From Parcubacteria group bacterium (GTDB lineage: Bacteria > Patescibacteriota > Patescibacteriia > UBA9934 > GWF2-40-263): a DNA stretch of 64,000 bases. The DNA lies in assembly GCA_013204395.1 (NCBI GenBank), contig JABMNZ010000025.1, positions 9,007 through 73,006 of the forward strand, in the 5' to 3' direction. Each line of letters opens with the position of its first letter. Within the stretch, counting starts at the first letter, position 1. A program made the translations under genes and the position numbers. The notes below the pieces were generated by a model. The model saw only the letters and a list, made by a program, of their open reading frames with translations, had not been told where the DNA came from and searched no databases. Positions 17,252 to 63,031 of this stretch are shown piece by piece.

Positions 17252-17255
17252 GAAA

Positions 17256-17279
17256 AACCGAGCGAACGCTCGGTTTTTG
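17256..17279 (+). terminator. rho-independent terminator of the glycosyltransferase operon
   Basis: ACCGAGCG-AA-CGCTCGGT hairpin followed by TTTTT. Confidence 0.6.
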
Positions 17280-17281
17280 GA

Positions 17282-17340
17282 TTGACAAAATCTATTAAAT
17301 AGGGTACTTTTTGTCGTTCGCTCAACCAGAAAGGAGGTCC
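17282..17340 (+). promoter_or_regulatory. candidate sigma-70 promoter plus strong SD for the ABC exporter
   Basis: TTGACA (17282-17287), 17-nt spacer, TACTTT; AAAGGAGG sits 5 nt before the TTG start at 17343. Confidence 0.4.
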
Positions 17341-17342
17341 AT

Positions 17343-19145
17343 TTGAACTTCTGGAAGCGATATTGGGCTCTCACGAGTCCGTTCAAGCGTGACATTGGTT
17401 GGTCCATCGGTTGGATCGCTGTGGCAACGTTGATGAGCCTTGCGGCTCCCTACGTCAACAAGTTGGTCTTTGACTTGGTCAACATCTGGTGCATGCCTCA
17501 GACGGGATCCCATGTCGGGGTCATCGAAACTCTGAGCGGGTGGATGCCCAGCGCGAACACCATGTGGTGGCTCGCCGGCACAATCATCCTGATCAAGGTT
17601 GTTGTCGAAGGTCTTTCAAGCACGGTGGGAATGCTCAACCAGCGCAGCTGGCTCAAGCTCATCCTGCTCATGAACGAGCGCATGCCCGTTTTGACCATGA
17701 GTCACTTGCTCAAGCTTTCCATGGGTCACCACATCCGTGAGAGTACGAGCAAGCAGATCACCAAGCTAGAGCGCGGTATCAACGCCGCGAGCCAGCTCAC
17801 GGATCGTCTCTTCGGAAGACTCCTGCCCGAACTCCTCGTCATTCCAGTCTTTTCAGTGGTCCTCTTGGTCCTTGATTGGCGTGTTGGGGTGCTAAGCCTA
17901 GTGCTGGGGGTGGTGAGTGGAATTTGGTCGGTGTACGATTTCCGGTCACTAACCCCACATCGCAAGAGGATGGAGACGCTCTACCAACAATCGAGCACCA
18001 TCGGCTACGAAGCCATCAGCAACATCGCGACCGTTCAAGCATTCGGTTGCGAGCAGCACGAACGTGGAAGGATCAAGGGCATCCTCGCGAATATTCGTGC
18101 GGTCGAATGGGCTCAACTGGCACGTGCCATGTTCGGTGGGTACCTACGAGACGGGATGTCCAACATCTCCGGTGCTGCCGTCATCTTGATTGGTCTCTGG
18201 GGACTTCAGTCCAATGCCATGTCATTGGGAACGATGGTGATGCTACTTCAACTCAACGGTCGGTTTATCCGTTCGTGTCGCACTGTGACGCGGGAATGGA
18301 TGGAGATGGGGCGGAATCAGGAGTCGCTCTCACACCTCATGGACCTGCTGGACAAGCAGCCTGACGTTGTATCGCTTCCAACAGCGGTTGACGTAGGTTC
18401 GTCGGTTGGAGATATCGAGTTTGAACAGGTGGTCTTCTCCTACGACGGCAAAGGTCCTGCAGTACAAGACGTCAGTTTCCTGGCCAAGGCTGGGGAGATG
18501 GTGGCGATTGTCGGTCCGTCAGGATCTGGTAAGTCCACTCTGATCTCGCTTCTGCTGCGCGCCTACGACGTGGAATCGGGTGCAATCAGGATCGGGCGAC
18601 AGGATCTCCGTGTACTGAGCCTGGACAGCTGGCGCTCCAAGGTGGGCATTGTTCCACAGAGCGTGGAGCTGTTCTCCATCTCTATTGCTGCCAACATTGC
18701 CTACGGGCGACAAGGCGCAACGGATGAGGAGATCATGGCGGCAGCCAAGCTTGCTGGAGCTCATGAGTTCATCTTGGCCAAGCCAGACGGCTACGACACC
18801 ATCGTTGGTGAAAGGGGCCTGGATCTTTCCGGTGGCGAGCGCCAACGGATCGGGATCGCACGCGCGATCCTCCGGGATCCACAGGTTCTGATCTTCGACG
18901 AGGCAACTAGCAGCTTGGACGTCATTTCCGAGGCTCACATCCAGGAAGCACTGGAAACGCTCCGCAAGGACCGAACGACCATCGTGGTCGCTCACCGGTT
19001 CTCAACGATCAAGAAGGCTGACCGCATCGTGGTCATGGACGGCGGCCGAATCGTTGCCCAAGGAACGCGCGAGGAACTGCTCGAAGGCAGCCCGCTCTTC
19101 ACCGAGTTGGCACGCCTGCAAAGCGAACTCGCAATCCGCGACTGA
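17343..19145 (+). CDS. ABC transporter, fused permease/ATP-binding exporter (MsbA/ABCB-type)
   Basis: 600 aa with six TM helices, then Walker A GPSGSGKST, signature LSGGERQR and Walker B LIFDEATS. TTG start with a perfect SD. GC content is visibly higher than the flanking DNA. Confidence 0.8.
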   Translation: MNFWKRYWALTSPFKRDIGWSIGWIAVATLMSLAAPYVNKLVFDLVNIWCMPQTGSHVGVIETLSGWMPSANTMWWLAGTIILIKVVVEGLSSTVGMLNQRSWLKLILLMNERMPVLTMSHLLKLSMGHHIRESTSKQITKLERGINAASQLTDRLFGRLLPELLVIPVFSVVLLVLDWRVGVLSLVLGVVSGIWSVYDFRSLTPHRKRMETLYQQSSTIGYEAISNIATVQAFGCEQHERGRIKGILANIRAVEWAQLARAMFGGYLRDGMSNISGAAVILIGLWGLQSNAMSLGTMVMLLQLNGRFIRSCRTVTREWMEMGRNQESLSHLMDLLDKQPDVVSLPTAVDVGSSVGDIEFEQVVFSYDGKGPAVQDVSFLAKAGEMVAIVGPSGSGKSTLISLLLRAYDVESGAIRIGRQDLRVLSLDSWRSKVGIVPQSVELFSISIAANIAYGRQGATDEEIMAAAKLAGAHEFILAKPDGYDTIVGERGLDLSGGERQRIGIARAILRDPQVLIFDEATSSLDVISEAHIQEALETLRKDRTTIVVAHRFSTIKKADRIVVMDGGRIVAQGTREELLEGSPLFTELARLQSELAIRD

Positions 19146-19191
19146 CCGAGCCTGTGCTCGGTCGAGGGACTCCACGAGTCCCTCTTTTTTG
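19146..19191 (+). terminator. twin hairpin terminator after the ABC exporter
   Basis: CCGAGC-CTGT-GCTCGG followed by GAGGGACTC-CAC-GAGTCCCTC, then TTTTTT. Confidence 0.6.
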
Positions 19192-19197
19192 TTGCCC

Positions 19198-19219
19198 GTC
19201 GGAAGCTAAGCTTCCGGCC
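19198..19219. repeat. palindrome element GTCGGAAGCTAAGCTTCCGGCC (copy 2 of 3)
   Basis: This 22-mer is identical to 57285-57306. It sits immediately 3' of a terminator at the right border of a GC-rich insert. Confidence 0.8.
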
Positions 19220-19332
19220 TGTATAGAAAAAAACGACCCTATGGTCAAAAACCATGCATTGAATGCAACAATCGATACTAAGTTTAGTTATGAATCATGC
19301 ATTCAATGTGCGATATATTGTTTGTCTGACAA

Positions 19333-19358
19333 ATAAAAAAACGACCCGTATGGTCGTG
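19333..19358 (-). terminator. minus-strand terminator for the 19386..19778 gene
   Basis: The reverse complement reads CGACC-CATACG-GGTCG followed by TTTTTTT. A near-duplicate motif AAAACGACCCTATGGTC occurs at about 19228. Confidence 0.5.
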
Positions 19359-19385
19359 GTGGTTGGGGGGCGAGTTGGTGGAGAG

Positions 19386-19778
19386 CTAGGAGAAGAAGCC
19401 TCGAGTGAGCGAGATCACTCGGTCGCGACGTTCGGAGTTCAGTGCCATTGCAGCGACGATGGCGGTCTGGCCATCGAGCTCATGCAGGCCTTCGGGCACA
19501 GTCGGCGTCACAGGCTCGGCGCTCTCGATGACGATGCGGGTGTACGAGCAGATGCCGCCATCGATCATCTTGAAAGGCAGGATGTGAGCGCAGCGCGTGC
19601 GCAGGGAGATTTCTCCGATCACGGGAACGCTGTCGGTCATGCCGGTGCCCAAGGCAGCCAGCACGATCATGGCTTCGGCGAGCGCCTCGGGGGAGTCGAA
19701 GGTGACTTGGTGGTTCTCAATCACCTGACTGAGCTCACCTCTTTGAAAGACCAGGATCTTGAAAGCGAGTGTGAACAT
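19386..19778 (-). CDS. Roadblock/LC7 (MglB-like) domain small protein
   Basis: 130 aa; the pattern ...EALAEAMIVLAALGTGMTDSVPVIGEISL... resembles robl/LC7 proteins. GGAGA SD. GC-rich. The overlapping plus-strand ORF 19263..19844 looks like antisense noise. Confidence 0.45.
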   Translation of the reverse strand: MFTLAFKILVFQRGELSQVIENHQVTFDSPEALAEAMIVLAALGTGMTDSVPVIGEISLRTRCAHILPFKMIDGGICSYTRIVIESAEPVTPTVPEGLHELDGQTAIVAAMALNSERRDRVISLTRGFFS

Positions 19779-20120
19779 GGTGGGTCTCCACGGTTGGTGT
19801 TCGGCAAGAGTAGATCACAATTGCCGCGGTGGGTCAATATTTAAGTGGAAATATGGCCGACGAGTTTATCCACATTCTTAGTCTACTGGGAGTCTGTATA
19901 ACTAACACAGCGCATAGCCGTAGGGCGTTAAGTGAAATAATAATACATTCCTTCCGTCACTATCGTGGTGGTTGGAAATCAAGATGATTTCCCTTTGCTA
20001 TTTCTAAACTAAAAACCCCTTCTTCTGAACATCACCTTTTTGATGTGCAAAAGAAGGGGTGGGGCGCAGCTTGTGGCTGCGCCCCGACGATTCGTTATCC
20101 CGCCGAAGCAGGATGTATCA

Positions 20121-20330
20121 TCACCCCCCTGCGTCTTTCTTGTGTCTCACGTTGTGGTAGACGCTGTAACCGACGCCGTAGACGAGGAGCAAGGACAGCA
20201 TGATCATGGGGATCAGCTCCAGCGGCTCCTCCTTCCACAAGCCGGCGTGGACGTTCCATCCCAGAATGAAGACAGCCGGGCCAAAAATCCCGACACCAAT
20301 GGCAATCTTGGCGATGAACCTGCTGGACAT
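20121..20330 (-). CDS. small two-TM membrane protein
   Basis: The internal ATG (MSSRFIAKIAIGVGIFGPAVFILGW...) has a perfect GGGAGGA SD 5 nt upstream. 69 aa, GC-rich. Confidence 0.5.
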   Translation of the reverse strand: MSSRFIAKIAIGVGIFGPAVFILGWNVHAGLWKEEPLELIPMIMLSLLLVYGVGYSVYHNVRHKKDAGG

Positions 20331-20532
20331 AAGGTCCTCCCTTTTGGGTGATGATGTTGTCAGTAAATACCTGTTCTTGGTTCGCCGACAACAGGGTTGC
20401 GAGCAGTACCATGAGATACAGGATAGGCAATTCAAACATTTCAAGGCGTTTAAGTCAATAGTCGCGCCCCATAAAATTGCTCAAATAAGCAAGATCTTAA
20501 TACCCAGGCAAACAAAAGACCTCTCAACAAAA

Positions 20533-22674
20533 CTAATATTCAAATATGTATTCAAACATATAGACTTGGCCGTCTTCGCCTACGGCGCGCCAGTCGTCTG
20601 CGGTGTTCTTGGCTGTTTCTATAATGCGTGGCGCTTGCCACCAATAGTTGTTTACAAGGAAATAGAGTCGCTTAACATCACCGTGTTGTGGTACTAGATC
20701 AAGGGCTTGTTGCGCAGTTTCTCGCGTGGGGGATTCGTTCATGGCGAGGAACACCTCGTAGAGAGGGCCGCCAGTTGGGATTGGGTAGAAGAACAAGTCT
20801 CCGAAGTAGTTGAAGCCGATTTCAGAAATCGCCGCCGCGCTAACAGACTGGTTGGCAAGCGTTAGGTATGGTTTACCCCCTGAGAGGGTATCTACCATGT
20901 GTACTGCATCGATGTCTGATTGGGAGACGTTAAAGCCACGGTTATTTTCATACGCGTCGCGCCTTGGGTAGGCCATGTAGAAGCTTGAGCTTGCAACGGC
21001 AACAAGGAGTACGAGAGCGCCAGCGCGTAGAACAACCGGCTGAGTTTTGATGTTTACGAAAAGATGTCCCAAGGCCAGGATCACATACGGCACAAGAAAG
21101 AATCCTATGAGTGGGAGCAGGCGAGTTGCGTAGTTTGATCGCTCGTAGTCGATGAGGAAGGTGAACTCGATGGCCCCTGACAAGATGAAGTAGTTAATCG
21201 AAAGGGCCATGACCATTAGGGAGATGGCACGGAATCGGCGAGAAAGTTCTTTGCGATATTCAAACCAGGCAAAGATCGCCAGGATGCCAAGGACCACCAT
21301 GGTGTTGAGGCCATAGAGGTACACGAGGTCCAGGAGAGGATCAAAACGATTTTCAAAAAAGACGGTGAGGTTTAGCTGGGAAAACCATTGCAGTGGATTG
21401 AGGGCGGCTAGGTCTATACCAAGCGACTGTCCACTGATGAGCGCGTTGATAACAAAACTCAGTGGTAGGACAATGCTGGCAAAAGCAATAAGTAGGATTC
21501 GTACCAGACGATTGGTTGTAGGGGTGCGAGGGTTTGTGCGCGACGGGTCTGTAGATAAGAACATGAAGTACAGAAGCGCCGGAATTCCTGCGATCGGATG
21601 GATGAGTGCTGTGGCCATCGCCCCTATGGCTAGTACGCGCAGGCGTGGGTGCTCATGCTCAAGCAGGTACGGAACAGACGCGAGGATGAGCAAGAGAGTC
21701 CAGAGGTTTGCGAGGCCCTGGGGGGTGGTTACGATGAAGTTTGAAAGTGGAACAAGGAATAGTCCTGTGAGGGTCAACATTGCCACGGACTTCTTTCTAA
21801 CAATATGTGCTGCAGCAAAGTACCAGGCCATTGGAAGTAGAAGGGCCGTAAGGATCGGCACAAGGAAGGTGTCCGCCAGATCAACAGGAATGGAAAATCC
21901 GTGGTGGGCAAACAAGACAAGCGCGTACTGCCCGATGTAGTAGAACGGTTTAGGAGTGATCGTTCCAAACTCTGCCAGGTGCATTTCTGTTGCCTTGTGA
22001 ATGAACGAGTCAAAACCGAACCCGATTGGAAAGGCAATGGCCGCTACACTTACGGCGGCAAAAAGAAGGGTAGAAAGTAGTACTAGCGATAGGGATCGCT
22101 CCTTTCCTCTCCAGAGCATGGCAAAGATTAAGGCCGTGGCCAAGAAGAACAATAAGAACAGTCCGCCTGGCAATCTTTCCCACACAGAACGTACGGCGTC
22201 AGTTACAAGAGACTCAGAGAGGGTAGAAAAAAACAGTGTAAGAAGAAGGAGTGTAGCTGCAGCCACGATCCACACGGCTCCTGGGACATGATGCTTTTTT
22301 TCTTTCCAAAGATTGTGGGCGTTAGAAAAAAGAGAGTGGTGTTTGGTTTTGCGTGCGGCCACCAATAGTACTGGTGGAGTGAGAAGAATGGTTACGTGAA
22401 TGATCGTCGGGGTGATGGCCCAGATGTAGTAGCTTGCGGTGATGATGATCAGCACAAAGCTCAGGAGAATCCAGATTCCAAGCCACCACCGGAGCACGGC
22501 TTTTTCATTTTGAGTTACAACCCCACCAAGCTCCCATCCAAATACCCCTAAATACATGATAAGAAGCAAGACACCAAAAAACACGCTTCCCACGAGGAAC
22601 GTGTTGATGACAAAAAGTGCTAGAAACAGCACTGCAATGATGGTAGCATGGAGTCTGTGGAACATAATCTCCAC
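20533..22674 (-). CDS. polytopic membrane protein, putative GT-C-type glycosyltransferase (ArnT/PMT/DUF2298-like)
   Basis: 713 aa with at least 12 predicted TM helices and a ~150-aa C-terminal soluble domain. It sits in a glycosylation locus. The family assignment is inferred. Confidence 0.5.
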   Translation of the reverse strand: MEIMFHRLHATIIAVLFLALFVINTFLVGSVFFGVLLLIMYLGVFGWELGGVVTQNEKAVLRWWLGIWILLSFVLIIITASYYIWAITPTIIHVTILLTPPVLLVAARKTKHHSLFSNAHNLWKEKKHHVPGAVWIVAAATLLLLTLFFSTLSESLVTDAVRSVWERLPGGLFLLFFLATALIFAMLWRGKERSLSLVLLSTLLFAAVSVAAIAFPIGFGFDSFIHKATEMHLAEFGTITPKPFYYIGQYALVLFAHHGFSIPVDLADTFLVPILTALLLPMAWYFAAAHIVRKKSVAMLTLTGLFLVPLSNFIVTTPQGLANLWTLLLILASVPYLLEHEHPRLRVLAIGAMATALIHPIAGIPALLYFMFLSTDPSRTNPRTPTTNRLVRILLIAFASIVLPLSFVINALISGQSLGIDLAALNPLQWFSQLNLTVFFENRFDPLLDLVYLYGLNTMVVLGILAIFAWFEYRKELSRRFRAISLMVMALSINYFILSGAIEFTFLIDYERSNYATRLLPLIGFFLVPYVILALGHLFVNIKTQPVVLRAGALVLLVAVASSSFYMAYPRRDAYENNRGFNVSQSDIDAVHMVDTLSGGKPYLTLANQSVSAAAISEIGFNYFGDLFFYPIPTGGPLYEVFLAMNESPTRETAQQALDLVPQHGDVKRLYFLVNNYWWQAPRIIETAKNTADDWRAVGEDGQVYMFEYIFEY

Positions 22675-30842: not shown

Positions 30843-31577
30843 ATGAGTAGAGACAAACGTGACGGTGGGATGGTGCTGCTCGAGGAGCCGCATTTTGATC
30901 AAATGAATCCATGGGGACAGCCGGTCGTTGGCTGGCTCCCAACTTCTCAAGGAGTGGGAGGGATTCAGAACCATCGCGGCTGGGCCATGCTCAGGACCGT
31001 GCTGTGGAAGCTGGACGAGGGTGGCAACCCCATTCCTCTGTACGACCAGCCCGTGATCGTGGAGAAGCCGGGTGCCATCGTGATCGCCACGGTGGGAGAT
31101 CGGATCGGTTTGATCCAGAGCTACCGCATGGTGGCCGAGCGACTCATGCCGGAATCGGGGAACGACTACATCCGTCGTCTTCAGAGCGAAGAACGATGGG
31201 GTGAACTGGTCGAGAGTACCGGAAAGTGGATGTGGGAGGCCCCTCGCGGTCTCATCGATGGCGACCCAAAGGAGATGGACGCAGAAGCGTTCGTGATCAA
31301 GTCGGCGAAGCTGGAGGCGGCTGAAGAGGCTGGTTTCCGTCTGAAGGGAGCTCGGCTTGTCGGTCGAGTGAACGTGAACCCCACCTTCTACCTGCACTCG
31401 CAGTGGGTGGTTCACGCCGAGATCGAATCCGTTGGTGATGCCAAGCCGGAGAACCTCGAGATCATCGGGGACAAGCGCCTGTTCACCATGGATGAACTTC
31501 GTGCGGCGAGCATCGACGGCACATTCGACGATGGACTTACTCTGGCGGGCATGGCCCTGTGCGGAATGAGTCTCTGA
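30843..31577 (+). CDS. hypothetical protein (cassette gene A; weak Nudix-like signature)
   Basis: GC-rich 244-aa ORF. ...GDPKEMDAEAFVIKSAKLEAAEEAGF loosely resembles a Nudix box. The overlapping minus ORF 30717..31415 looks like antisense noise. Confidence 0.55.
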   Translation: MSRDKRDGGMVLLEEPHFDQMNPWGQPVVGWLPTSQGVGGIQNHRGWAMLRTVLWKLDEGGNPIPLYDQPVIVEKPGAIVIATVGDRIGLIQSYRMVAERLMPESGNDYIRRLQSEERWGELVESTGKWMWEAPRGLIDGDPKEMDAEAFVIKSAKLEAAEEAGFRLKGARLVGRVNVNPTFYLHSQWVVHAEIESVGDAKPENLEIIGDKRLFTMDELRAASIDGTFDDGLTLAGMALCGMSL

Positions 31578-31588
31578 AGCGAGTCTGT

Positions 31589-31672
31589 GTTCCAGAATGA
31601 GTCCATACGAGGACTAATTCTGGAGTAAAGATTTTCTACGCGCGGTCTGAAATACGGCTGCTTTTTTGTTTG
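31589..31672 (+). repeat. cassette 3' module A: 14-bp-stem hairpin plus conserved 43-nt element
   Basis: TTCCAGAATGAGTCC...GGACTAATTCTGGAG hairpin, then GATTTTCTACGCGCGGTCTGAAATACGGCTGCTTTTTTGTTTG (31630-31672). The same 43-mer, with 1 mismatch, occurs at 32753-32795. Confidence 0.7.
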
Positions 31673-31701
31673 AGTCGAATTGTCGATCTTATACCTTTAC
31701 G

Positions 31702-31806
31702 ATTGACAATAAGTGAAATGGCTGCTAATTTGAGTCCTCTCTGTCATCCGGCAGGGTTTTGCAGATGCAGCTCTGGCCCACCAAGGTCAGTCTGTGCGAG
31801 GTTCAC
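31702..31806 (+). promoter_or_regulatory. conserved cassette promoter/leader B
   Basis: GATTGACAA...GCTGCTAATTT...CTCTGTCATCCGGCAGGGTTTTGC; GAGG SD before ATG 31807. Confidence 0.55.
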
Positions 31807-32703
31807 ATGGGAGACGAAATCACAGAGGTTCCACCCGAGATTCAGAGAGTCGCTTGTTTGGCGATGACTCCTGAGGGGCAGGTGGTGTTCGACCACACAG
31901 GTGACAGGGCGGAGCTCAGGCTTGTGCAAGGTCAGCTGTGGGCAATGGAAACGGCAGAAGAGTGTGCTCAGCGACGGCTGACCACAAGTCTCTTCGTGCG
32001 CTCAGGCTCCGAGATGAGTCTTCATAACCTGGGGCTGATCAGCCTCGGATCCGAGAGTCAGAGGACCCAGATGGTCCTGTTCGTTGCAACGGGAGTCGAT
32101 CTGAGAAAGGAAGGTATGCGGTCCATGGACGGACTGCAGGAAAACGACGAGCCTGTCCTACTGTCGCTCTACGAGATCTACAAGCAGATCAGGGAAGGGG
32201 CTATCAGCGACACGCTGGTCCAGACTGCCGTGATGCGGATGCTGGTTACCGGACTCATCAATCCACCAGGGGTATTGCCACTGGCTCGATTCACGCCGGT
32301 GCACTCGATCACTCACCACTGGTTCTCTTCATTCATGGGCCATGGGATGACCTTGACCGTCATGTCTGATGGGCGCATCAGGCTTTACGACGGGTCAGAT
32401 GACTTCTGCTCGATGCCTCCGTCGGTCTTCGGAGTTCTCGCCACGGACCTCAAGCCGATCATTCGTCGGTTGAAGCGTCAGTCGCGTCGCAAGAGTGGTG
32501 TCTGGAGCTTCCGTCTCTACTTCTACCACGGCTACACCTACGACTACGCCGCCAAGAGGGACCGTGGAGGCAATGGTCCGCACCTGACGTTGTACTACGA
32601 GGTCAAGGAGCTCGAAAATGCACGTGCGCTCGCCATCAAGTTCCAGGAGATCCTGGATGCTCAAGCGAAGCTCCCTCAACTGAACCGACTCTGGTTCTTC
32701 TGA
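31807..32703 (+). CDS. hypothetical protein (cassette gene B)
   Basis: GC-rich 298-aa ORF with no recognisable motif. The track ORF starts at TTG 31759 inside the leader. Confidence 0.55.
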   Translation: MGDEITEVPPEIQRVACLAMTPEGQVVFDHTGDRAELRLVQGQLWAMETAEECAQRRLTTSLFVRSGSEMSLHNLGLISLGSESQRTQMVLFVATGVDLRKEGMRSMDGLQENDEPVLLSLYEIYKQIREGAISDTLVQTAVMRMLVTGLINPPGVLPLARFTPVHSITHHWFSSFMGHGMTLTVMSDGRIRLYDGSDDFCSMPPSVFGVLATDLKPIIRRLKRQSRRKSGVWSFRLYFYHGYTYDYAAKRDRGGNGPHLTLYYEVKELENARALAIKFQEILDAQAKLPQLNRLWFF

Positions 32704-32711
32704 GAATCTCT

Positions 32712-32795
32712 AATCCCGAACCTGCGCTTAGATGTGCAGGTTCGGGATTGTGGATTTTCTACGCGCGGTCTGAAATACGGCCGCTTTTTTGTTTG
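32712..32795 (+). repeat. cassette 3' module B: perfect 14-bp-stem hairpin plus conserved 43-nt element
   Basis: AATCCCGAACCTGC-GCTTAGAT-GCAGGTTCGGGATT, then GATTTTCTACGCGCGGTCTGAAATACGGCCGCTTTTTTGTTTG. Confidence 0.7.
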
Positions 32796-32841
32796 GTTGG
32801 AAGTTTGACGACATTTTATACACATCGTAGAGTATCGCCGT

Positions 32842-33924
32842 ATGAAAGCACTCATTGCAGCAGGTGGGCACGCAACACGTTTGCGGCCTATTACATGGAC
32901 GAGAAATAAGCATTTGATACCAATGGCTAACAAGCCAATGCTTTGGTATGTTCTTAAAAAGGTTACGGATGCTGGAATCAAAGACATCATCGTTAATGTG
33001 AATCCTGGCGAGGTAAAGTACATGTCTGATGCCCTGGGTGATGGCAGTGAGTTTGGTGCAACCATCACGTACTTGGAGCAGCGCGGGGGTGCTAAGGGGT
33101 TGGCTCATGTTGTGGCCAATGCTGAGGAACATCTCAAGGGTGAGCGATTCCTATTTTTCTTGGGCGACAATATTATCTTGGGATCCATCAATAAGTTTGT
33201 TGATCGATTTCAAAATGAGGAGCTCGACTGCATGATTGCTTTGTCGCATGTGAAGGACCCACATCGTTTTGGTGTTGCAGAGTTTGGTGTTGATGGAGAA
33301 CTTACACGGACGGTTGAAAAACCAAAGGATCCACCATCACCATTTGCCGTCACAGGAATTTATTTATTCGACGAAAAGTATTTTGAAGCTTTCAAGAACA
33401 TTGATCCATCTCCACGAGGTGAATATGAAATTACGGATATCATTACCTGGTATATCCGTAATGGAAAAGTTGGGCACGAGGAGATTACTGGATGGTGGAA
33501 AGATACTGGAACACCAGACGCACTTATTGAGGGCAACGCTCTCATTATGGATGACATGGAGCGCGGTGAATTCTGCGTGGACTGTAAGCCTCATGTGGAC
33601 GCACAGATTCAAGGACTTGTATCCATAGGTGAGGGGTCGGTTATTTCAAGTGACTGCTTGATCCGTGGACCTGTAACCATTGGAAAGAACTGTGTGATCG
33701 AATCAAGTTTTATCGGTCCGTACACGGCCATAGGGGATGGTGTGACGGTTCGCAATACAGAGGTTGAGCACTCCATCGTATTTGAGGGAGCAACGATCGA
33801 TACCACAAGACGTATTGTAAATAGTCTTATTGGCACAAACGCAACGCTGGTAGATCACAAACGGTCGCATCCAAAAACCAGCCATAGGCTGGTGATCGGT
33901 GATAATAGTTTTGTAGAGCTGTAA
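32842..33924 (+). CDS. rmlA: glucose-1-phosphate thymidylyltransferase (long form with C-terminal left-handed beta-helix)
   Basis: MKALIAAGGHATRLRPITWTRNKHLIPMANKPM... nucleotidyltransferase motif. 360 aa. Upstream TTGACG-17-TAGAGT promoter-like sequence. Confidence 0.8.
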   Translation: MKALIAAGGHATRLRPITWTRNKHLIPMANKPMLWYVLKKVTDAGIKDIIVNVNPGEVKYMSDALGDGSEFGATITYLEQRGGAKGLAHVVANAEEHLKGERFLFFLGDNIILGSINKFVDRFQNEELDCMIALSHVKDPHRFGVAEFGVDGELTRTVEKPKDPPSPFAVTGIYLFDEKYFEAFKNIDPSPRGEYEITDIITWYIRNGKVGHEEITGWWKDTGTPDALIEGNALIMDDMERGEFCVDCKPHVDAQIQGLVSIGEGSVISSDCLIRGPVTIGKNCVIESSFIGPYTAIGDGVTVRNTEVEHSIVFEGATIDTTRRIVNSLIGTNATLVDHKRSHPKTSHRLVIGDNSFVEL

Positions 33925-39739: not shown

Positions 39740-40306
39740 GTGTCCACCCCTGTGATAGACTTGGGGTATATGACAAATCAAGTACCAAAGCTTTGGATCT
39801 TTTTCTTTATTATTATCGCCGGACTTATTGTTGGGTTCGCCTTGAGTAGTCCCGCCGTTCAGGAACAGGAAGAAGTTGTAGACTTTCAGGAAAATGTTGA
39901 AATGACGGGGGTTAGAGAACAAACCTTCGGTGCGATGTTGGATGGTGGGGGTAATGCTATTTACTTAGAGAACCAGTTGTCCGGTACTACGGGTGTGCAA
40001 GTTGGATTTGCCGTCCTGGCTAGGCCTGGGTTTGTGGTGATCTTTGATGATGACGATGGTGTGCCCGGGAAGGTGATAGGGGCCTCTGATTATCTGCAGA
40101 ATGGTGGGGAGCATTTAACCGTCGCATTGCAAACGTTTTTAATTGACGGAGCTGTGTACTACGCCGTTCTATATCACGACAACGGAGATCTTGTTTTTGA
40201 CGAGAATGCTGACTCACAAGCACTGGATTCGACAGATTCTGTAGTCCTTATGACCTTTCTTTCAACCTATGAAGCACAACCTGAGGTTGGTGCGATAACG
40301 CCTTGA
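39740..40306 (+). CDS. hypothetical secreted/membrane-anchored protein
   Basis: N-terminal TM LWIFFFIIIAGLIVGFAL; 188 aa. Confidence 0.5.
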   Translation: MSTPVIDLGYMTNQVPKLWIFFFIIIAGLIVGFALSSPAVQEQEEVVDFQENVEMTGVREQTFGAMLDGGGNAIYLENQLSGTTGVQVGFAVLARPGFVVIFDDDDGVPGKVIGASDYLQNGGEHLTVALQTFLIDGAVYYAVLYHDNGDLVFDENADSQALDSTDSVVLMTFLSTYEAQPEVGAITP

Positions 40307-40378
40307 CACCTTTGTTTGCGGAGCGTATCTTCATTACTCGTTGGCGCATCCCGTGCTGACAAGTGACAAGGAGAGCTC

Positions 40379-40867
40379 GTGTCTCGAAGAAGTCGAATGA
40401 AAGACAGGCCCAAGAATCCCCGTCAGCGCATGCTTGAGGAGCTGCAGGAATTGCTGGCGTTGGCTCGTGAAGCCATCTCCACGGAGACCGATCCGCTGCT
40501 GATCAACGCTGATCAGCTCGCACCGGTTCTGGAGTTGGCGGAGCGGACCGCGAAGATCGCGCGGACCTACACGATTCAGCGTGAGCTGATGATGGAGATC
40601 TACGGGCTGTTGATCAGTGGGAAGTTCAACTTCCGTCTGCTCGACGAGATCTTCCAGGGACGTCGTGGGAAGAGGCCTACGGCCGTCTTCGACCAGAGCA
40701 TCAAGATCATCTCGATCCAGGTCGCTGGTCGCATCCCCGTGAACGAGGCACATGTTCGTGACCCGCTCACCGGTGAGAGCATGCCGGCCACGGAAGTCCG
40801 TGTGGGTCTGATCGAGTTCCTCACGTCCATTGGGCGTCACGTCGAAGCCGGAGCCTTCGCGCTTTAG
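40379..40867 (+). CDS. hypothetical protein (GC-rich islet)
   Basis: AGGAGA SD then GTG start. 162 aa. The overlapping minus ORF 40334..40903 looks like antisense noise. TTGACA-17-TATCTT promoter-like sequence at about 40303. Confidence 0.5.
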   Translation: MSRRSRMKDRPKNPRQRMLEELQELLALAREAISTETDPLLINADQLAPVLELAERTAKIARTYTIQRELMMEIYGLLISGKFNFRLLDEIFQGRRGKRPTAVFDQSIKIISIQVAGRIPVNEAHVRDPLTGESMPATEVRVGLIEFLTSIGRHVEAGAFAL

Positions 40868-40890
40868 GCCACACGACCACAACACGCAAT

Positions 40891-40921
40891 CCCGGTATGG
40901 CACCTGTCATCCGGGTTTTTT
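40891..40921 (+). terminator. terminator after 40379..40867
   Basis: CCCGG-(15 nt)-CCGGG followed by TTTTTTG. It contains CTGTCATCCGG, the same 11-mer as the cassette leaders. Confidence 0.5.
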
Positions 40922-40938
40922 GATAGAATGGTTTTGAT

Positions 40939-41472
40939 ATGGATATTCCAGTTAGAAAAAGTAAACGTGCCAAGAACATGTCTATTGTGGTTCATTCCGG
41001 TGGGCGATGGGAGGTTGTGGTACCAGCTCTTAGGGGTCCGTCTGACAGAACGATCAAAAGACATGTGGATAACCATCGTGACTGGATCGAGAAACAGGTG
41101 GATCGTATGAGTCGGGAAAAAGAGCGAGATACGCTCTGTCATGGTGGTGTGGCACGAAGCGTTGTTGAAGAACAGACATTGCAGATGATCGAGGCAACAG
41201 TTTTGAAAATGAGACGGGTTCATCCTGTAACGATCGAAAAGATCCGTCTTGGAAACTGGAAGAGGCAGTGGGGGAGTTGTAGCAGTGGTATGACCCTTGG
41301 TTTTCACTATAAGCTTTCTTTGCTGCCCACACATCTCGCAGAATATATCGTCGCTCACGAACTTGCCCACACAACCCATTTTAACCACTCAAAGGCCTTT
41401 TGGGAGCTGGTTGAGAGACTTTGTCCCAATGCTAAATCTTGCCGAAAAGCTCTGCGACAGTTCACCTTGTGA
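40939..41472 (+). CDS. YgjP-like (DUF45) HExxH metal-dependent hydrolase
   Basis: HELAHTTHFNHSKAFWELVERL matches the YgjP family signature. Confidence 0.75.
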   Translation: MDIPVRKSKRAKNMSIVVHSGGRWEVVVPALRGPSDRTIKRHVDNHRDWIEKQVDRMSREKERDTLCHGGVARSVVEEQTLQMIEATVLKMRRVHPVTIEKIRLGNWKRQWGSCSSGMTLGFHYKLSLLPTHLAEYIVAHELAHTTHFNHSKAFWELVERLCPNAKSCRKALRQFTL

Positions 41473-57306: not shown

Positions 57307-57395
57307 CGTGGGGGTTTTCTTAGCCTTTCTCGTTCCAGTGCAGGTTGTTTATGTAGGTATTTAAAAACCCCGATGTCGTATCGGGGGGGGGTGGA

Positions 57396-58220
57396 TCAGA
57401 GTTCCGGGTAGCGGTCCTCGATCCGGCGCACTAGTCGTTCGAACTCGGGCAGTCGGTGGTTGTCTGGTCTCCAGGCGATGGAGTCCATCAGGTTGATCTC
57501 CTCTACGATCCTTGCGCCATCTTGCGGAACGCCATCGACGAAGTCGCGACCCATGAGCCATACCGTGTCTGCGATGCGCAGAGCAGACCGGATGTCATGG
57601 GAGATCACAACGATGGTTCGGTGCTCGTCCATGTTGGTCGTTTCGACGAGAAGGTCACACACAGCCGTCTTAGCCAGGGTGTCGAGCCCGGAGAACGGTT
57701 CGTCCATCATGATCAGCTTGTCACCGTTGATGACCTGCTGAGCGATCGCCAGTCTTTGACGTTGGCCACCAGAGAGCTGAATGGGGTACTTGTCGATCTC
57801 TCGGGCGATTCCGAACCGCTCGAGGAGCTCCATGATTCGACTCTTGTAGTCGGTGGCAGAGATCTCGGGATTGTTCCGTGCCGATACCAACATGTTGCCC
57901 ATCACCGTGCGGTGAACGAGCAGCATGTAGTTCTGGTACACCACCCCCACTGATCCTGCGACCACTGGGACAAGCGGTGAGCCAGCCCTCACGATGCCCT
58001 CATTGGGCCTTTCCAGTCCGGCAAGGGCCCTGAACAACGTGGTCTTTCCACAACCCGATGGGCCGAGAATTGCCACGATCTGTCCTTGGGTCATGCCAGG
58101 TCGGATCACGTCATGAACTTGTACGGACAAACCCTTGAGGATGGTTCTGTCTCCGAAGGACTTGGTCACACCAACGGCTTCCAACAGCAGGTCGCCCCTT
58201 GAGTGTTCGTAGTCTCCCAT
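57396..58220 (-). CDS. ABC transporter ATP-binding protein (NitT/TauT nitrate/sulfonate/bicarbonate family)
   Basis: Walker A GPSGCGKTT, signature LSGGQRQR, Walker B LIMMDEPFS. GC-rich. Confidence 0.8.
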   Translation of the reverse strand: MGDYEHSRGDLLLEAVGVTKSFGDRTILKGLSVQVHDVIRPGMTQGQIVAILGPSGCGKTTLFRALAGLERPNEGIVRAGSPLVPVVAGSVGVVYQNYMLLVHRTVMGNMLVSARNNPEISATDYKSRIMELLERFGIAREIDKYPIQLSGGQRQRLAIAQQVINGDKLIMMDEPFSGLDTLAKTAVCDLLVETTNMDEHRTIVVISHDIRSALRIADTVWLMGRDFVDGVPQDGARIVEEINLMDSIAWRPDNHRLPEFERLVRRIEDRYPEL

Positions 58221-58221
58221 C

Positions 58222-58998
58222 TCAGTGTCCTCCTAGTGCGGTGTGCGGAGCGCAGACGCGCTTGGCCAGGCCCAACAGGTAGTCGATGCCGATGCCCATG
58301 ACAAGCACAAGCAGCATGATGGCCGTCTGGACGCCAGGGTCGGTGTACTTCTTGGCGTCGTACATGATGACTCCCAGGCCTCCTGAGCGTGAGATGACCT
58401 CCACACCAGCGAGCATGGCAAAGCCGATGGCGTTGTTCTGCCGCATGGCCTCCAGCGCATCTGCGAAGGTGCCAAAGACGACAATCTCTTTGACGATCTC
58501 CCACTCGCTCATCCTGAGCGTGCGGGCGTAGTCATATTTGCTCTGGGGAATCGCCATGACCACGGCAACCATGGAGGTCGTGAAGAAGACCGTGATGGCG
58601 AAGGTGAGCAGGGAGAGCTTTACACCGTCTCCGCTCACGAACATCTGCCTGGCGATGAACGAAAGTCCAGCGATCGACAGAAAGCGCATCAGGGTGACCC
58701 CCCTGACCAATGGCTGAACAAAGCCGAGGCTCCGTGCGTAGCTCAGGAGCAGGGAGATCACCGTTGCCAGGCCTAGGGCCATGGTGGTCAGCTTCAAGCT
58801 TTCCATGATGTCCAGGTAGAAGCTCTGTTTGCCCATAAGCCCCATGAGGGCGGAGAGCGTGTCAGAGACACCCGGAACGGTTGGGGAGCGCCACAGCTCC
58901 CACGTCAGGATGAAGACGGCGATCCAGATGATGGACCACAGCCAGAAACCAGCGGGAGACAAGGGTTGGTTTGGTGTAAACCATGCCTTGGGGTTCAT
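58222..58998 (-). CDS. ABC transporter permease (binding-protein-dependent inner membrane component)
   Basis: 258 aa, 6 TM. Adjacent to and 1 bp from the ATPase gene. Confidence 0.7.
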   Translation of the reverse strand: MNPKAWFTPNQPLSPAGFWLWSIIWIAVFILTWELWRSPTVPGVSDTLSALMGLMGKQSFYLDIMESLKLTTMALGLATVISLLLSYARSLGFVQPLVRGVTLMRFLSIAGLSFIARQMFVSGDGVKLSLLTFAITVFFTTSMVAVVMAIPQSKYDYARTLRMSEWEIVKEIVVFGTFADALEAMRQNNAIGFAMLAGVEVISRSGGLGVIMYDAKKYTDPGVQTAIMLLVLVMGIGIDYLLGLAKRVCAPHTALGGH

Positions 58999-59146
58999 TG
59001 CGCGCCCTCCTTAGACTGACTACATTTTGTCGTCAGCTTGAAATCATTGACTTGAGCAGCCGGGAAATACCAGCCGCTTAAGAAAATGCCCGACATCCAC
59101 ATCTGCAAGAGATGCTTAGTCGGGCAGCGTTGTCGTGCTCTACGTC

Positions 59147-59803
59147 CTAGAGCGTGATCACCCTCACTTCCACGCGACGGTTGGTCGCGCGACCCTGGGG
59201 AGTCCCGTTGGACTCCAGGGGGTTGTCCTCCCCGTGGGGGTGGACCGTGATCCGGTCCTTGGGGAAGGTCGCCGGGGCGATCTCCTGCAGGTAGACCTTG
59301 ACCGCGAAGGCGCGATCTTCGGACAGGACCAAGTTGGTCTCAGCTTCTCCCTGGCTGTCGGTGTAGCCGTGGATCTCTACCCGTGTGCTCTCGGCCATGA
59401 CCAGCAGGGTTGCCAGCTCGTCCAGGTCGCCGGCGGCGCTGGTGTTGAACTGTGCCGAACCGCTCTTGAAGCTGATCTGCCAGCTCCGCGATCCGATCAC
59501 CTGACCGGGGGCGCTGGAGGCCTTGGCGAAGTCCGGAGCGGCGATGCCACCACCCTCGACGCCTTCCAACTTGGAGGCGGCCAGGAGGTACTCACCGTTG
59601 AACACGTCGTCGAACGCGGGATAGGACGAGATGTCCTCGGGCCAGAGATCGACGGCGAGGTCGCCGTAGTACTCGTAGGAGCGCTTGAAGGGGTTGCCCG
59701 CCGATGGGTCAACTCCGTAGAACTGGAGTGCCTCGTCCATGGTGAAGGCCTGGCTTCCGCCGAGTCTCACGCGAACGGTGCGGGTCTTGTCCCACTCCTC
59801 CAT
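59147..59803 (-). CDS. OmpA/MotB-like C-terminal domain protein, in-frame continuation of upstream ORF across a single TAA
   Basis: VEIHGYTDSQGEAETNLVLSEDRAFAVKVYL ... NRRVEVRV OmpA-like signature. The ATG is 3 nt after the TAA of 59807..60964, in the same frame. Confidence 0.55.
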   Translation of the reverse strand: MEEWDKTRTVRVRLGGSQAFTMDEALQFYGVDPSAGNPFKRSYEYYGDLAVDLWPEDISSYPAFDDVFNGEYLLAASKLEGVEGGGIAAPDFAKASSAPGQVIGSRSWQISFKSGSAQFNTSAAGDLDELATLLVMAESTRVEIHGYTDSQGEAETNLVLSEDRAFAVKVYLQEIAPATFPKDRITVHPHGEDNPLESNGTPQGRATNRRVEVRVITL

Positions 59804-59806
59804 GCC

Positions 59807-60964
59807 TTAGTAGTAGGCGGCCCAGTCCTTCGCGTCCATGACGGCCGTCTGGTAGATGGCGAAGGACGCTTCGCCGCTGTGGGTGAGGGCTTCGCGGCTG
59901 GAGCGGACCTCGAGGTTGCCCTCGAAACCACCTGCCAGCCAGTTCACCACCTCGCCCTTGTGGGCCTGGTTCCACTTGCGGATGCCGAAGATCGCGTTGG
60001 GCATCTGCCCACTGTTCTCTTTGGTGGAGAAGATCTTCGCCAGGCCACCCTTGAGACGGGTGACGTTCACGTCGCCGGGGGTCCATGTGCAGGTGCCTGC
60101 GATGCAAACATTCTGCGTGCGACCGGTGAGCTTGCCACCCTTGACCTCCTTGAGGTCGTCGCACTGGTCCTCGATGTAGGCCTTGTCGCCCTCGTCGAAG
60201 CTGCCGGTGTACAGGAAGTTCAGCGCGTCGGGATCCCAGGTGTTCCCGTTGGGATTCACTGGGATGTTGTTGAGTGCTGCCCAAGTGAGGGCCACGTTGA
60301 TGTCGCCGTCACCCTGCACCCCCGCGAAGCGCTTGCCTCGGCAGAAGTCCGGGTTGTTCACGCACTCGGGTGGACCCATGAAGGTGTCCTCGCCCAGCGA
60401 CCGTCCGAAACCGCCGATGATCTCGGCGCGATACTCCGGTCCCAGCTTGGCGAGCTCACGGTTGAGTCCGTCGACGTACCAGGCCGCCGCATCGCCCATC
60501 ATGGCGGTGTGCGTGTAGCCGGCCGTGCAGTTGTCCGAGTTTGTGCGCTGCATCTGCGTGGCACAGGCGATGAGACCGTCCTTCTGGTCTCCGTACATGT
60601 CCTGGCCTTCGATGCGGAGGTTGACCCCCCACTTCTCCATGATGGAGCCCTGCAAGGTGCGGGGTCCACCGTTGGCGTGGTTCACGCCGGCCATGGAGTT
60701 CCAGGGGATGACGCCCCAGTAGATCTCGGTCGAGGTCATGGCCGCCGGGCTGTTCCCGGGGATGGTCACTCCCTCGCTGCTCGCGCTGACGCGCTGGTTC
60801 TGGAAGCTGTTGTCCAGCTCGACGTTGCCGTCGATGGTCACCGACTCGGTGCTCTCGGGTGCGGCCATGCGGTAGAGGGTGAGTCCACCAGCGAACATTG
60901 CCGCCAGAACAGCCACTACGGCGAACAGTCCACCGACCGCGCCCTTGTTTACGGATGTGCCCAT
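59807..60964 (-). CDS. secreted protein (signal peptide; possible solute-binding-like domain), N-terminal part of a split secreted/OmpA-domain gene
   Basis: Signal anchor GAVGGLFAVVAVLAAMFAGG. 385 aa, Cys-rich. Placed in an operon with ABC permease and ATPase. The TAA at 59807-59809 is followed in-frame by 59147..59803. Confidence 0.5.
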   Translation of the reverse strand: MGTSVNKGAVGGLFAVVAVLAAMFAGGLTLYRMAAPESTESVTIDGNVELDNSFQNQRVSASSEGVTIPGNSPAAMTSTEIYWGVIPWNSMAGVNHANGGPRTLQGSIMEKWGVNLRIEGQDMYGDQKDGLIACATQMQRTNSDNCTAGYTHTAMMGDAAAWYVDGLNRELAKLGPEYRAEIIGGFGRSLGEDTFMGPPECVNNPDFCRGKRFAGVQGDGDINVALTWAALNNIPVNPNGNTWDPDALNFLYTGSFDEGDKAYIEDQCDDLKEVKGGKLTGRTQNVCIAGTCTWTPGDVNVTRLKGGLAKIFSTKENSGQMPNAIFGIRKWNQAHKGEVVNWLAGGFEGNLEVRSSREALTHSGEASFAIYQTAVMDAKDWAAYY

Positions 60965-60994
60965 GTAACTATCTCCTCGAATGCCCAGAACTTG

Positions 60995-62125
60995 CTAGGA
61001 CTTGTTGGTTCTTCTTGCGGCGAGTTCCCTGCGGATTCTCGCCCGGCGATCTTCATCCGATTCCCCGGATGTGGTGGGAGCAGATTCTGGCTCTGCTACG
61101 GAAAGCGCTCTAGCTCTCCTGCCAAGTCTGCTTGTCGCAGACGATGGGTGTTCACTGGGAAGCTCCATGGCTGCCAGTTCACGTGTTGCCCCGCTCCATT
61201 GCCGAAGCACTTGCTGGCTTCCAGCAACGTTTGCGATGTTCACACGAGCCAGAACGTCATGTCCTTCTGCAAGGCGAATCTCGATATCAGCGGCACGCAT
61301 CTCTGCGGCAGCTCGGAGTTCTGCGACGGCTTGTCGGACAGAAAGTTCTTGCTCGGAACGTTCTCCCAGCTCACCAAGGTGGCTGCCTAGTGCATCCTGC
61401 CTCAGGTCCGCGCTGCGGAGCTGTGCTTCCTGCAAGGAAAGCTCTTCTTTGATCCGCATGATGTCCAGCTCCAGCTGGTTGCTCATCGTTTGGAGCGAAT
61501 CTCTGAACTGCTTGATGCCGGCGGTGAGTTGGCCGAATTTTGCGGCTGTTTGTTCTTTGAGGCCAGCCTTCTGAATGAGGACTTCAGCTCGACGTCTGTC
61601 ACCAGAGTCATCCAGATCCAGGGCTTCAGCCTTGAAGGCTTCAGCCTCACGGCTGCTCGAGTCTTCTTCTCGCTGACAGTCAGCGATGAATCGATCGATT
61701 CCAACCTGAGCCAGGAGCATGCGCTGGTGCTGCTTTTCAAGCCGGTCGATGACGTCACGTGTCTTTTCAACCGGATCTTCTTGCTCCGCTTCTTCATGTT
61801 CCCAATCATCTTCGGAGACATCCTCGTCTTCGATCAGGAACGTTCGGTAGGCCTTGGTGAACAAGGCTAGATACGAGGTGTAGGCAAGTCCTGCCAGGCC
61901 ACGCGCAGTCCTGTTCATTGCGGCCAAACCTGCCAGCAAGCCTCCACCCAAGATGGCACCCGCTACGATGAGCGGACCAGCAGGGGTGAAGGCAGCAGCG
62001 GCAAGCAAGGGCAGAAGGAGCCAGGCCAGCATTACGAGCACAGGAGCAAGAAGAACGGCACCAGTCATCTTGGCCGCCTTCAACTCCTTGGGAGTCATCC
62101 GTAGGCGGTCGATGAGGTCGTTCAT
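60995..62125 (-). CDS. membrane-anchored coiled-coil protein
   Basis: Two N-terminal TM helices, then about 250 aa of Glu/Arg/Ala-rich heptad-like sequence. Confidence 0.5.
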   Translation of the reverse strand: MNDLIDRLRMTPKELKAAKMTGAVLLAPVLVMLAWLLLPLLAAAAFTPAGPLIVAGAILGGGLLAGLAAMNRTARGLAGLAYTSYLALFTKAYRTFLIEDEDVSEDDWEHEEAEQEDPVEKTRDVIDRLEKQHQRMLLAQVGIDRFIADCQREEDSSSREAEAFKAEALDLDDSGDRRRAEVLIQKAGLKEQTAAKFGQLTAGIKQFRDSLQTMSNQLELDIMRIKEELSLQEAQLRSADLRQDALGSHLGELGERSEQELSVRQAVAELRAAAEMRAADIEIRLAEGHDVLARVNIANVAGSQQVLRQWSGATRELAAMELPSEHPSSATSRLGRRARALSVAEPESAPTTSGESDEDRRARIRRELAARRTNKS

Positions 62126-62140
62126 TGGTACTTACTCCTC

Positions 62141-62854
62141 TTAGGGGTTGTTGCCCGGGGGCTCCTCGGGGGTGGCATCGGGGTGCTGACCACGGACGAA
62201 GGCATCGGCCGCCATGAGTCCAGCATCGCGCTGTGCGATGTGGGCCATGGAGGCTTCCACCGCTTGTCCGATGGCGGCGCGCCGCGACTGAGCCTCGGCT
62301 TCTTCGATTTGGGCTTCACGGCGCAGCTGAGCGATCTCCATCTCCATCACCTGGGCACGCGCCCGCTTGTCGAGAACACTCGCTTCCAGCTCACCGACCT
62401 GCTCCTCGATGGCGCCGTCACGTCCCGCTTCGACTTCTTGACGGATGTCGGCGCAGGCTTGCCTGGCTTCGGCGATGTCCCAGAGCACATGTCCGGGCGT
62501 GAATCCTTGAGTGGTCTGCATGGCACCGGCCACGATCATGGCACGTTGGCCAGAGTCGGGCAGGCCCGGAGCAAACTGAGCATCGAGTTGACGCCACAGC
62601 GAGAATGCCGGAGCTGCTGCTGCAGCGATCTCGTCGTCGACGAGCCTGATGATCTCTTCGGGATCCATCTGCACGATCTCCGCACCCAAGGGGGCAGGGG
62701 TCGTGACTGGCGGCATGGTCGGCGGGGCCAACTCGGCTTCGAGCTGATTCATGGCCGCGGCCAAGTCTTCTGCTGAGAGCTCGGGGGTGTCGCCACCTCC
62801 TTTGGTCTCAACCAACAGTCCGGTTTTCAAACCGAGGGTCTTGAAAAAGCTCAT
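62141..62854 (-). CDS. coiled-coil protein (PspA-like composition, unassigned)
   Basis: 237 aa, N-terminal amphipathic MSFFKTLGLKTGLL, long acidic/Ala-rich helices. Confidence 0.5.
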   Translation of the reverse strand: MSFFKTLGLKTGLLVETKGGGDTPELSAEDLAAAMNQLEAELAPPTMPPVTTPAPLGAEIVQMDPEEIIRLVDDEIAAAAAPAFSLWRQLDAQFAPGLPDSGQRAMIVAGAMQTTQGFTPGHVLWDIAEARQACADIRQEVEAGRDGAIEEQVGELEASVLDKRARAQVMEMEIAQLRREAQIEEAEAQSRRAAIGQAVEASMAHIAQRDAGLMAADAFVRGQHPDATPEEPPGNNP

Positions 62855-63031
62855 ATCTCCTCCATGGTCCGGTTAGGACCAGTTCAGTGTTGTGATTCAT
62901 GGTTTTGTGAAGGTGTTCAGTTGTGAAGAACGACGGGGATTTTTACGTTAAAATGCTGAAAATGTCAACGGGTATAAAGGTGTGGATGAATCATTCGCTG
63001 TAAGGCCGTAGATTTAGTACCCTTTTATCGT

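Follow-up and report, generated by a model that had tools for sequence, protein, structure and literature searches.

We analyzed a 64,000-nucleotide (nt) stretch of a contig (JABMNZ010000025.1) from a Parcubacteria group bacterium, hereafter called the window, in which two adjacent open reading frames (ORFs) on the minus strand are in all probability the halves of a single binding-protein gene split by a recent nonsense mutation, that is, a nascent pseudogene. Codon 386, which specifies Glu in the sister lineage, would have become TAA in the Parcubacteria lineage of the window. Gene loss is typical of reduced genomes such as those of Parcubacteria, and a nascent pseudogene is in keeping with this. 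Since pseudogene contents of 5–10% have been reported for metagenome-assembled genomes (MAGs) of Parcubacteria (PMC11188291), one further pseudogene is unsurprising.

In the sequence and the ORF list, the 5' ORF (59807..60964, minus strand; 385 amino acids, aa) ends with the TAA at 59807-59809, and the 3' ORF (59147..59803, minus strand; 218 aa) starts with the ATG at 59801-59803 and ends with the TAG at 59147-59149. Apart from this TAA, only a GGC codon (59804-59806) separates the two ORFs, which are in the same frame, the second start being located 3 nt after the stop. Translation of 59147-60964 gives 605 codons in one frame, interrupted only by the stop at codon 386 and free of further stops and frameshifts. 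The initial annotation of the window had proposed one frame broken by a single TAA and had rebuilt a 605-aa protein from it; this proposal is borne out by the nearest ortholog, which is exactly 605 aa long and collinear. The NCBI annotation lists two coding sequences (CDSs), with a 385-aa product (NQV89591.1, 'hypothetical protein') and a 218-aa product (NQV89590.1, 'OmpA family protein'). The parts of the interrupted gene are as follows:

59807..60964, minus strand: 5' part of the interrupted gene, codons 1-385 and the TAA
60863-60946, minus strand: transmembrane (TM) anchor, residues 7-34, within the 5' part
60733 downward, minus strand: most of the TauA/NrtA-like substrate-binding fold, from about residue 78, in the 5' part after a low-confidence spacer
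59807..59809, minus strand: premature stop TAA, codon 386, GAG (Glu) in the ortholog
59147..59806, minus strand: 3' part of the interrupted gene, codons 387-605 and the TAG
to 59555, minus strand: rest of the substrate-binding fold, to about residue 470, in the 3' part and followed by a linker
59150-59500, minus strand: OmpA-like peptidoglycan-binding domain, residues 489-605 (Pfam OmpA, 65.4 bits)

An antisense open frame of 751 aa (59135-61390, plus strand) also spans the whole gene; it is the usual artefact of a very high G+C (guanine plus cytosine) content at the third codon positions (GC3) of the coding strand, and not a gene.

By chance, one third of adjacent co-directional genes are expected to share a frame, and same-frame adjacency is therefore weak evidence when taken alone; three more TAA junctions within the window (14881, 43579, and 46179) are normal gene boundaries. 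It is the homologs that raise the split gene above chance. A search of 5.8 billion proteins identified a nearest homolog of exactly 605 aa (84% identity), and 42 of the 44 other matches were 519-620 aa long (41 of them 593-620 aa), with a C-terminal OmpA domain. An exhaustive phmmer search of 1.84 billion representatives yielded 329 family clusters, and 120 of the best 149 of these 329 had a length of at least 570 aa, the remaining 29 being shorter entries with cut ends or frameshifted tails. Among the same 149 clusters, no class of entries ending near residue 385 was found, and three database entries lacking the OmpA domain end near residue 470. Two entries of 431 and 432 aa (P0027 and P0036) were considered as natural short forms and rejected as fragmentary and error-laden; the source of the short family entries ('src') is presumably a protein-level assembly catalogue.

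The nearest homolog is encoded by a locus (L001, Candidatus Uhrbacteria isolate BH28) syntenic with the window, in the order methyltransferase, 237 aa, 376 aa, 605 aa, permease, ATPase, acetyltransferase, and GATase. The BH28 gene and that of the window align without gaps over 1818 nt (85% identity), and the codon that is TAA in the window is GAG in BH28 and specifies Glu, Lys, or Thr in other relatives. The window thus carries an in-frame stop where intact syntenic orthologs carry a sense codon. The Gly-Met codons after position 386 are identical in the window and BH28, so what looks like the start of the second ORF is an internal Met codon that was there before the stop; two more 605-aa cluster members have EGM at residues 386-388, and the Met position is occupied by Arg in more distant relatives. 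Neither of the protein searches nor the syntenic loci yielded a split gene, every intact relative being a single gene of about 600 aa. The initial annotation had also called for a comparison of orthologs, and these proved to be continuous genes of this length, without a two-gene arrangement. Scans by exact pattern for alternative alleles around the stop retrieved none from metagenome contigs and only the BH28 contig from genome contigs, and no intact allele of the window's own lineage was found by these scans.

The two CDSs listed by NCBI and the proportion of neighboring genes sharing a frame by chance would also agree with two ancestrally separate genes in frame by accident. However, the intact relatives all have one gene, the shorter entries look fragmentary or frameshifted, and the break lies inside a protein fold, so the probability of this explanation is vanishingly small; at the level of the sequences compared, it is refuted by the orthologs.

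The stop was established from assembled contigs, and the window belongs to a MAG. A sequencing or assembly artefact, with a sense codon and an intact 605-codon gene in the real genome, would be consistent with this origin and with the healthy appearance of the remaining gene and of the operon. However, the 385-aa sequence occurs in identical form in NCBI, JGI/IMG, and Logan assemblies, and a JGI contig (L005, 2385 bp, sample 3300033275) shares the TAA, its sole difference from the window being the base at position 59592 (GAG to GCG, which replaces Glu by Ala in codon 71 of the downstream ORF). Because of this single-nucleotide polymorphism, L005 is not a copy of the same consensus. Furthermore, the TAA differs from the GAG of the ortholog at two positions, and the site lies outside any homopolymer or repeat. 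An artefact is therefore very unlikely, and the lesion is present in the sampled population. The Glu to Ala change at 59592 is a single data point, compatible with relaxed constraint downstream of the stop but not a demonstration of it. The initial annotation had left three options open: a recent nonsense mutation, an assembly error, and an unusual stop-and-restart. The first is favored by the Glu codon of the ortholog and the relatives of about 600 aa; the second is unlikely given the same TAA in a second assembly, and the third finds no support, as discussed below.

The architecture of the intact protein was deduced from an AlphaFold2 model of the ortholog (predicted local distance difference test, pLDDT, 89.9; predicted template modeling score, pTM, 0.87), with the following regions:

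residues 7-34: membrane-anchor helix
residues 35-75: low-confidence spacer
residues ~78-465: alpha/beta domain
residues 481-490: confidence dip (linker)
residues 489-605: OmpA-like domain

Pfam OmpA (PF00691) matched residues 112-209 of the 218-aa ORF with the score given above (cut-off 27.2 bits) and 42 of the 44 family members, and this part displays both the OmpA-like fold and the conserved peptidoglycan-contact motif (T-D ... N..LS..R-A). The 385-aa part had no Pfam or NCBIfam match at E values up to 0.1, a PDB profile search returned only OmpA-domain chains, and the protein falls outside the curated binding-protein families (NMT1, NMT1_2, and the SsuA/TauA/NrtA models), with one of the 44 relatives matching NMT1 (E 0.003). 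Sequence profiles are thus blind to the binding domain, and its fold was identified by structure: the comparison revealed a Type II periplasmic-binding-protein fold, closest to TauA/SsuA/NrtA. The modeled fold indicates that the gene encodes the substrate-binding protein of the adjacent NitT/TauT-type permease and ATPase, and a cognate permease and ATPase lie directly downstream of the binding-protein gene, both in the window and at loci L001-L004 and L007-L009. The acidic residues among the invariant positions at most hint at a cationic ligand. The intact protein of about 605 aa would therefore have an uncleaved N-terminal membrane anchor, a flexible spacer, a two-lobed TauA/SsuA/NrtA-like domain (~78-470), a linker, and a C-terminal OmpA-like domain, an arrangement that would tie the binding protein to both the membrane and the cell wall. 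Of the 'secreted Cys-rich domain' fused to an OmpA domain in the initial annotation, the fusion stands; the domain itself appears to be a membrane-anchored binding protein of the NitT/TauT type and not a generic Cys-rich domain, although the protein has seven cysteines. The operon had likewise been thought to lack a substrate-binding protein, which, judging from the fold comparison, is the interrupted gene itself. A literature search on binding-protein/OmpA fusions found nothing relevant; at NCBI, they presumably go by the name 'phosphate ABC transporter substrate-binding/OmpA family protein'.

The stop is located inside the substrate-binding fold, rather than at its junction with the OmpA domain. 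Residues 387-470 have pLDDT values above 90 in the ortholog model, and LGGS 401-404, Y430, and P442, all downstream of the stop, are nearly invariant. A model of the truncated protein had 42-72 fold-aligned residues fewer than the full-length model against all reference binding proteins, and the sequence 3' of the TAA encodes about one sixth of the canonical binding fold. The rows of this comparison are given below, each with its four values in the order of the source table:

TauA: 288; 237; 23.8; 18.4
3un6: 280; 233; 20.9; 17.0
SsuA 3e4r: 281; 235; 19.9; 15.9
NrtA: 318; 246; 17.8; 16.7
SsuA 3uif: 294; 233; 16.5; 13.2

The truncation thus takes an essential part of the protein (fold residues, conserved motifs, and the OmpA domain), from which a functional effect is predicted. 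Translation would end after 385 residues and leave a membrane-anchored fragment that lacks the wall anchor and linker as well as the final sixth of the fold; on the basis of the models, this product is most likely unstable or inactive.

The region downstream of the stop showed no decay. The ratio of nonsynonymous to synonymous substitution rates (dN/dS) relative to BH28 hardly differed between the binding domain ahead of the stop (0.20) and the region after it (0.19), the polarised amino-acid changes downstream numbered 9 on the window branch and 7 on the BH28 branch, and all 25 of the 25 nearly invariant family positions downstream were retained. The permease and ATPase are also intact. Thus, neither relaxed selection (dN/dS and conserved residues) nor an additional lesion (frame) was detected downstream, suggesting that the lesion is recent. 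By a rough Poisson bound, neutral evolution of the 3' part would account for a dS of about 0.02 at most, of a pairwise dS of 0.49. It is less likely that the 3' part is still translated instead of the lesion being recent. Three positions that at least 90% of the family members conserve are changed in the protein of the window (D239N, A259G, and I326F), all of them upstream of the stop, and the polarised changes in the binding domain, 18 on the window branch and 9 on the sister branch, did not differ significantly (p = 0.12); together, these may faintly indicate that constraint on the gene as a whole had already weakened.

The same absence of decay would be expected if the split were tolerated or functional, with low-level readthrough of the TAA, or translation of the 3' part by termination-reinitiation, maintaining the role of the protein. 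The nearness of the ATG to the stop would favor this explanation, as would the equal dN/dS values and the retention of all conserved downstream residues, and low-level translation across in-frame stops has been documented for Salmonella pseudogenes (PMC9122581). However, the readthrough in Salmonella occurred mainly at UAG (68.6% of cases) and least often at UAA (PMC9122581), whereas the stop in the window is UAA. No relative has the stop, which is thus not a conserved recoding site, and the other marks of programmed readthrough, a leaky context and a stimulatory RNA, are also missing (context UAA-G; no notable RNA structure around the stop, z score -1.11). UAA is, in addition, read by both release factors. 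A suppressor tRNA was not found, there being no tRNA gene of any kind within the window. An alternative genetic code was rejected, as TAA ends 20 of the 41 long ORFs and is the commonest stop, TGA and TAG also being used; unusual nucleotide conservation at the stop was rejected as well, since longer identical runs occur elsewhere in the gene.

As for reinitiation, the initial annotation had noted the lack of a Shine-Dalgarno (SD) sequence before the second ORF, and indeed no properly spaced SD was found in the 30 nt upstream of its ATG, where the only candidate, an AAGG, ends a single nt ahead of the ATG; at the other five starts of the operon, a GGAG, GAGG, or AGGAGG is positioned 6-9 nt upstream. 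Of the features expected for translational coupling, only proximity (the 3-nt spacer) was found, without an SD, a conserved arrangement, or an export signal. The 218-aa ORF has no hydrophobic N-terminus (maximum 19-residue hydropathy of 0.09 in the first 60 residues), and reinitiation at the nearby Met would, for want of an export signal, strand the wall-binding domain in the cytoplasm, away from both the peptidoglycan and the other half of the fold. A stop-and-restart is therefore disfavored: the ATG is an old internal Met without SD or signal peptide, and no relative is split. The selection signal, moreover, would be expected anyway if the mutation is recent. We therefore consider a tolerated or functional split unlikely. 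That the TAA is no dead end in a more specific sense, yielding mostly the truncated anchored fragment and a little full-length, wall-tethered protein through readthrough or reinitiation, is highly improbable; if the 3' part were still translated, this would be an unusual expression state for the binding protein of an ABC transporter in a bacterium with a reduced genome.

Several points nevertheless speak against a young pseudogene. The undiminished purifying selection downstream of the stop would fit a still-translated 3' part equally well. We infer the loss of function of the truncated product from models, and some activity might persist in an anchored fragment that has about five sixths of the fold. 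Finally, the stop rests on assembled contigs, and L005 may not come from an independent sample.

The interrupted gene is the third of five genes in what looks like one operon, for which the remaining features are as follows:

62939..62968, minus strand: promoter-like site TTGACA-18-AAAAAT ahead of the cassette (consensus match only; 1 found versus 1.5 expected in shuffles)
62141..62854, minus strand: cassette gene 1, a 237-aa coiled-coil protein, function unassigned (ORF list)
60995..62125, minus strand: cassette gene 2, 376 aa, hydrophobic at the N-terminus and with a long, charged helical stretch, function unassigned
58999..59146, minus strand: spacer of 148 nt between the binding-protein and permease genes, with hairpins (minimum free energy -52 kcal/mol, z score -2.05)
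58222..58998, minus strand: NitT/TauT-like ABC permease, 258 aa, intact (SD AAGGAGG)
57396..58220, minus strand: ABC ATPase, 274 aa, intact (Pfam ABC_tran, 93.8 bits)
57368..57386, minus strand: terminator-like hairpin and T-run directly 3' of the ATPase gene (consensus match only)

The permease has weak matches to SaoP, TauC, and NtrB, below the curated cut-offs, and is 75% identical to its ortholog, with equal length. The ATPase is 66% identical to the BH28 ortholog (L001 6925-7803) and 18 residues shorter, owing to an acidic insertion after the Walker A region in BH28 that is absent from the window; the ATPases of other relatives have 273-290 aa, so this segment is variable. In the spacer, a hairpin (GCCCGAC...GUCGGGC) is followed by AUUUUCUU, and could be a partial terminator or attenuating stem-loop setting the ratio of binding protein to membrane components.

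The set of two coiled-coil proteins, binding-protein/OmpA fusion, permease, and ATPase was also found in the Uhrbacteria loci L001-L004, in L007, and in the Polyangiaceae loci L008 and L009. At every locus examined, from Patescibacteria to Polyangiaceae, the binding-protein/OmpA gene is accompanied by one of the 376-aa type, and a gene of about 237-aa size occupies the first cassette position in related and distant loci. Neither of these two genes belongs to a Pfam, NCBIfam, or PADLOC family, Pfam searches with ten orthologs of both at E values up to 1 gave only coiled-coil noise, and PADLOC returned only generic MotB and ABC matches. In the distant locus L007 (1-1003), an 872-aa gene with major-vault-protein domains (Vault_3, MVP_shoulder) lies a few genes upstream of the cassette. 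The cassette (57368-62968) has a G+C content of 0.60, versus 0.44-0.48 in its flanks, and GC3 is 0.86 in the binding-protein/OmpA gene versus 0.43 in the neighboring GATase gene. The orthologous cassettes (L001 2300-7803, L002 2387-7806, and L003 772-6386) exceed their flanks by 4-12 points (10-12 in L001 and L002, 4-5 in L003), in genomes that differ in base composition. Among the possible causes of this richness are an ancient horizontal acquisition and selection on codons for strong expression, but it may have another cause. Elevated G+C content was also seen at 17001-22000, 31001-33000, and 40001-41000 of the window (0.50-0.57 versus about 0.45).

The main value of these results is a correction of the annotation: NQV89591.1 and NQV89590.1 should be regarded as pieces of one disrupted binding-protein gene. 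The nonsense split itself is an ordinary young pseudogene, in which gene loss in a reduced Parcubacteria genome is caught at its earliest visible stage, with a single lesion and no decay yet. As a by-product, the analysis defines a moderately interesting protein family of about 330 representative clusters, in which a peptidoglycan anchor is joined to a TauA/NrtA-like binding protein that Pfam does not detect. The system formed by the intact family, uncharacterised to date, is widely distributed, being present from Patescibacteria to Polyangiaceae inside a conserved five-gene cassette.

The locus resembles the 'pseudo-pseudogenes' of Salmonella (PMC9122581) in that an in-frame stop interrupts a gene which close relatives have intact, with the mRNA presumably still made from the operon and some low-level translation across the stop conceivable; it differs from them in its stop, which is UAA, the codon least read through there. 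The NitT/TauT-family binding proteins (TauA 6ssy, SsuA 3e4r/3uif, NrtA 2g29, CmpA 2i48, and ThiY 3ix1) are relatives at the level of the fold. Unlike them, the protein of the window has no sequence-level family membership, its invariant residues are rich in Asp and Glu, and it has an additional N-terminal TM helix, a C-terminal OmpA-like domain, and insertions (about 390 versus about 300 aa). MotB/PomB, TagL/TssL, YiaD, and YfiB are also membrane-anchored, with a C-terminal OmpA-like peptidoglycan-binding domain, but the gene in the window inserts a complete binding fold between anchor and OmpA domain and belongs to an ABC transporter operon rather than to a motor or secretion system. Finally, NrtC/CmpC (9uai, 8wm7) also carry a TauA/NrtA-type fold as a module of a larger multidomain protein; theirs, however, is attached to the ATPase and acts as a regulatory domain in the cytoplasm, whereas the module described here would be extracytoplasmic and fused to a wall anchor.
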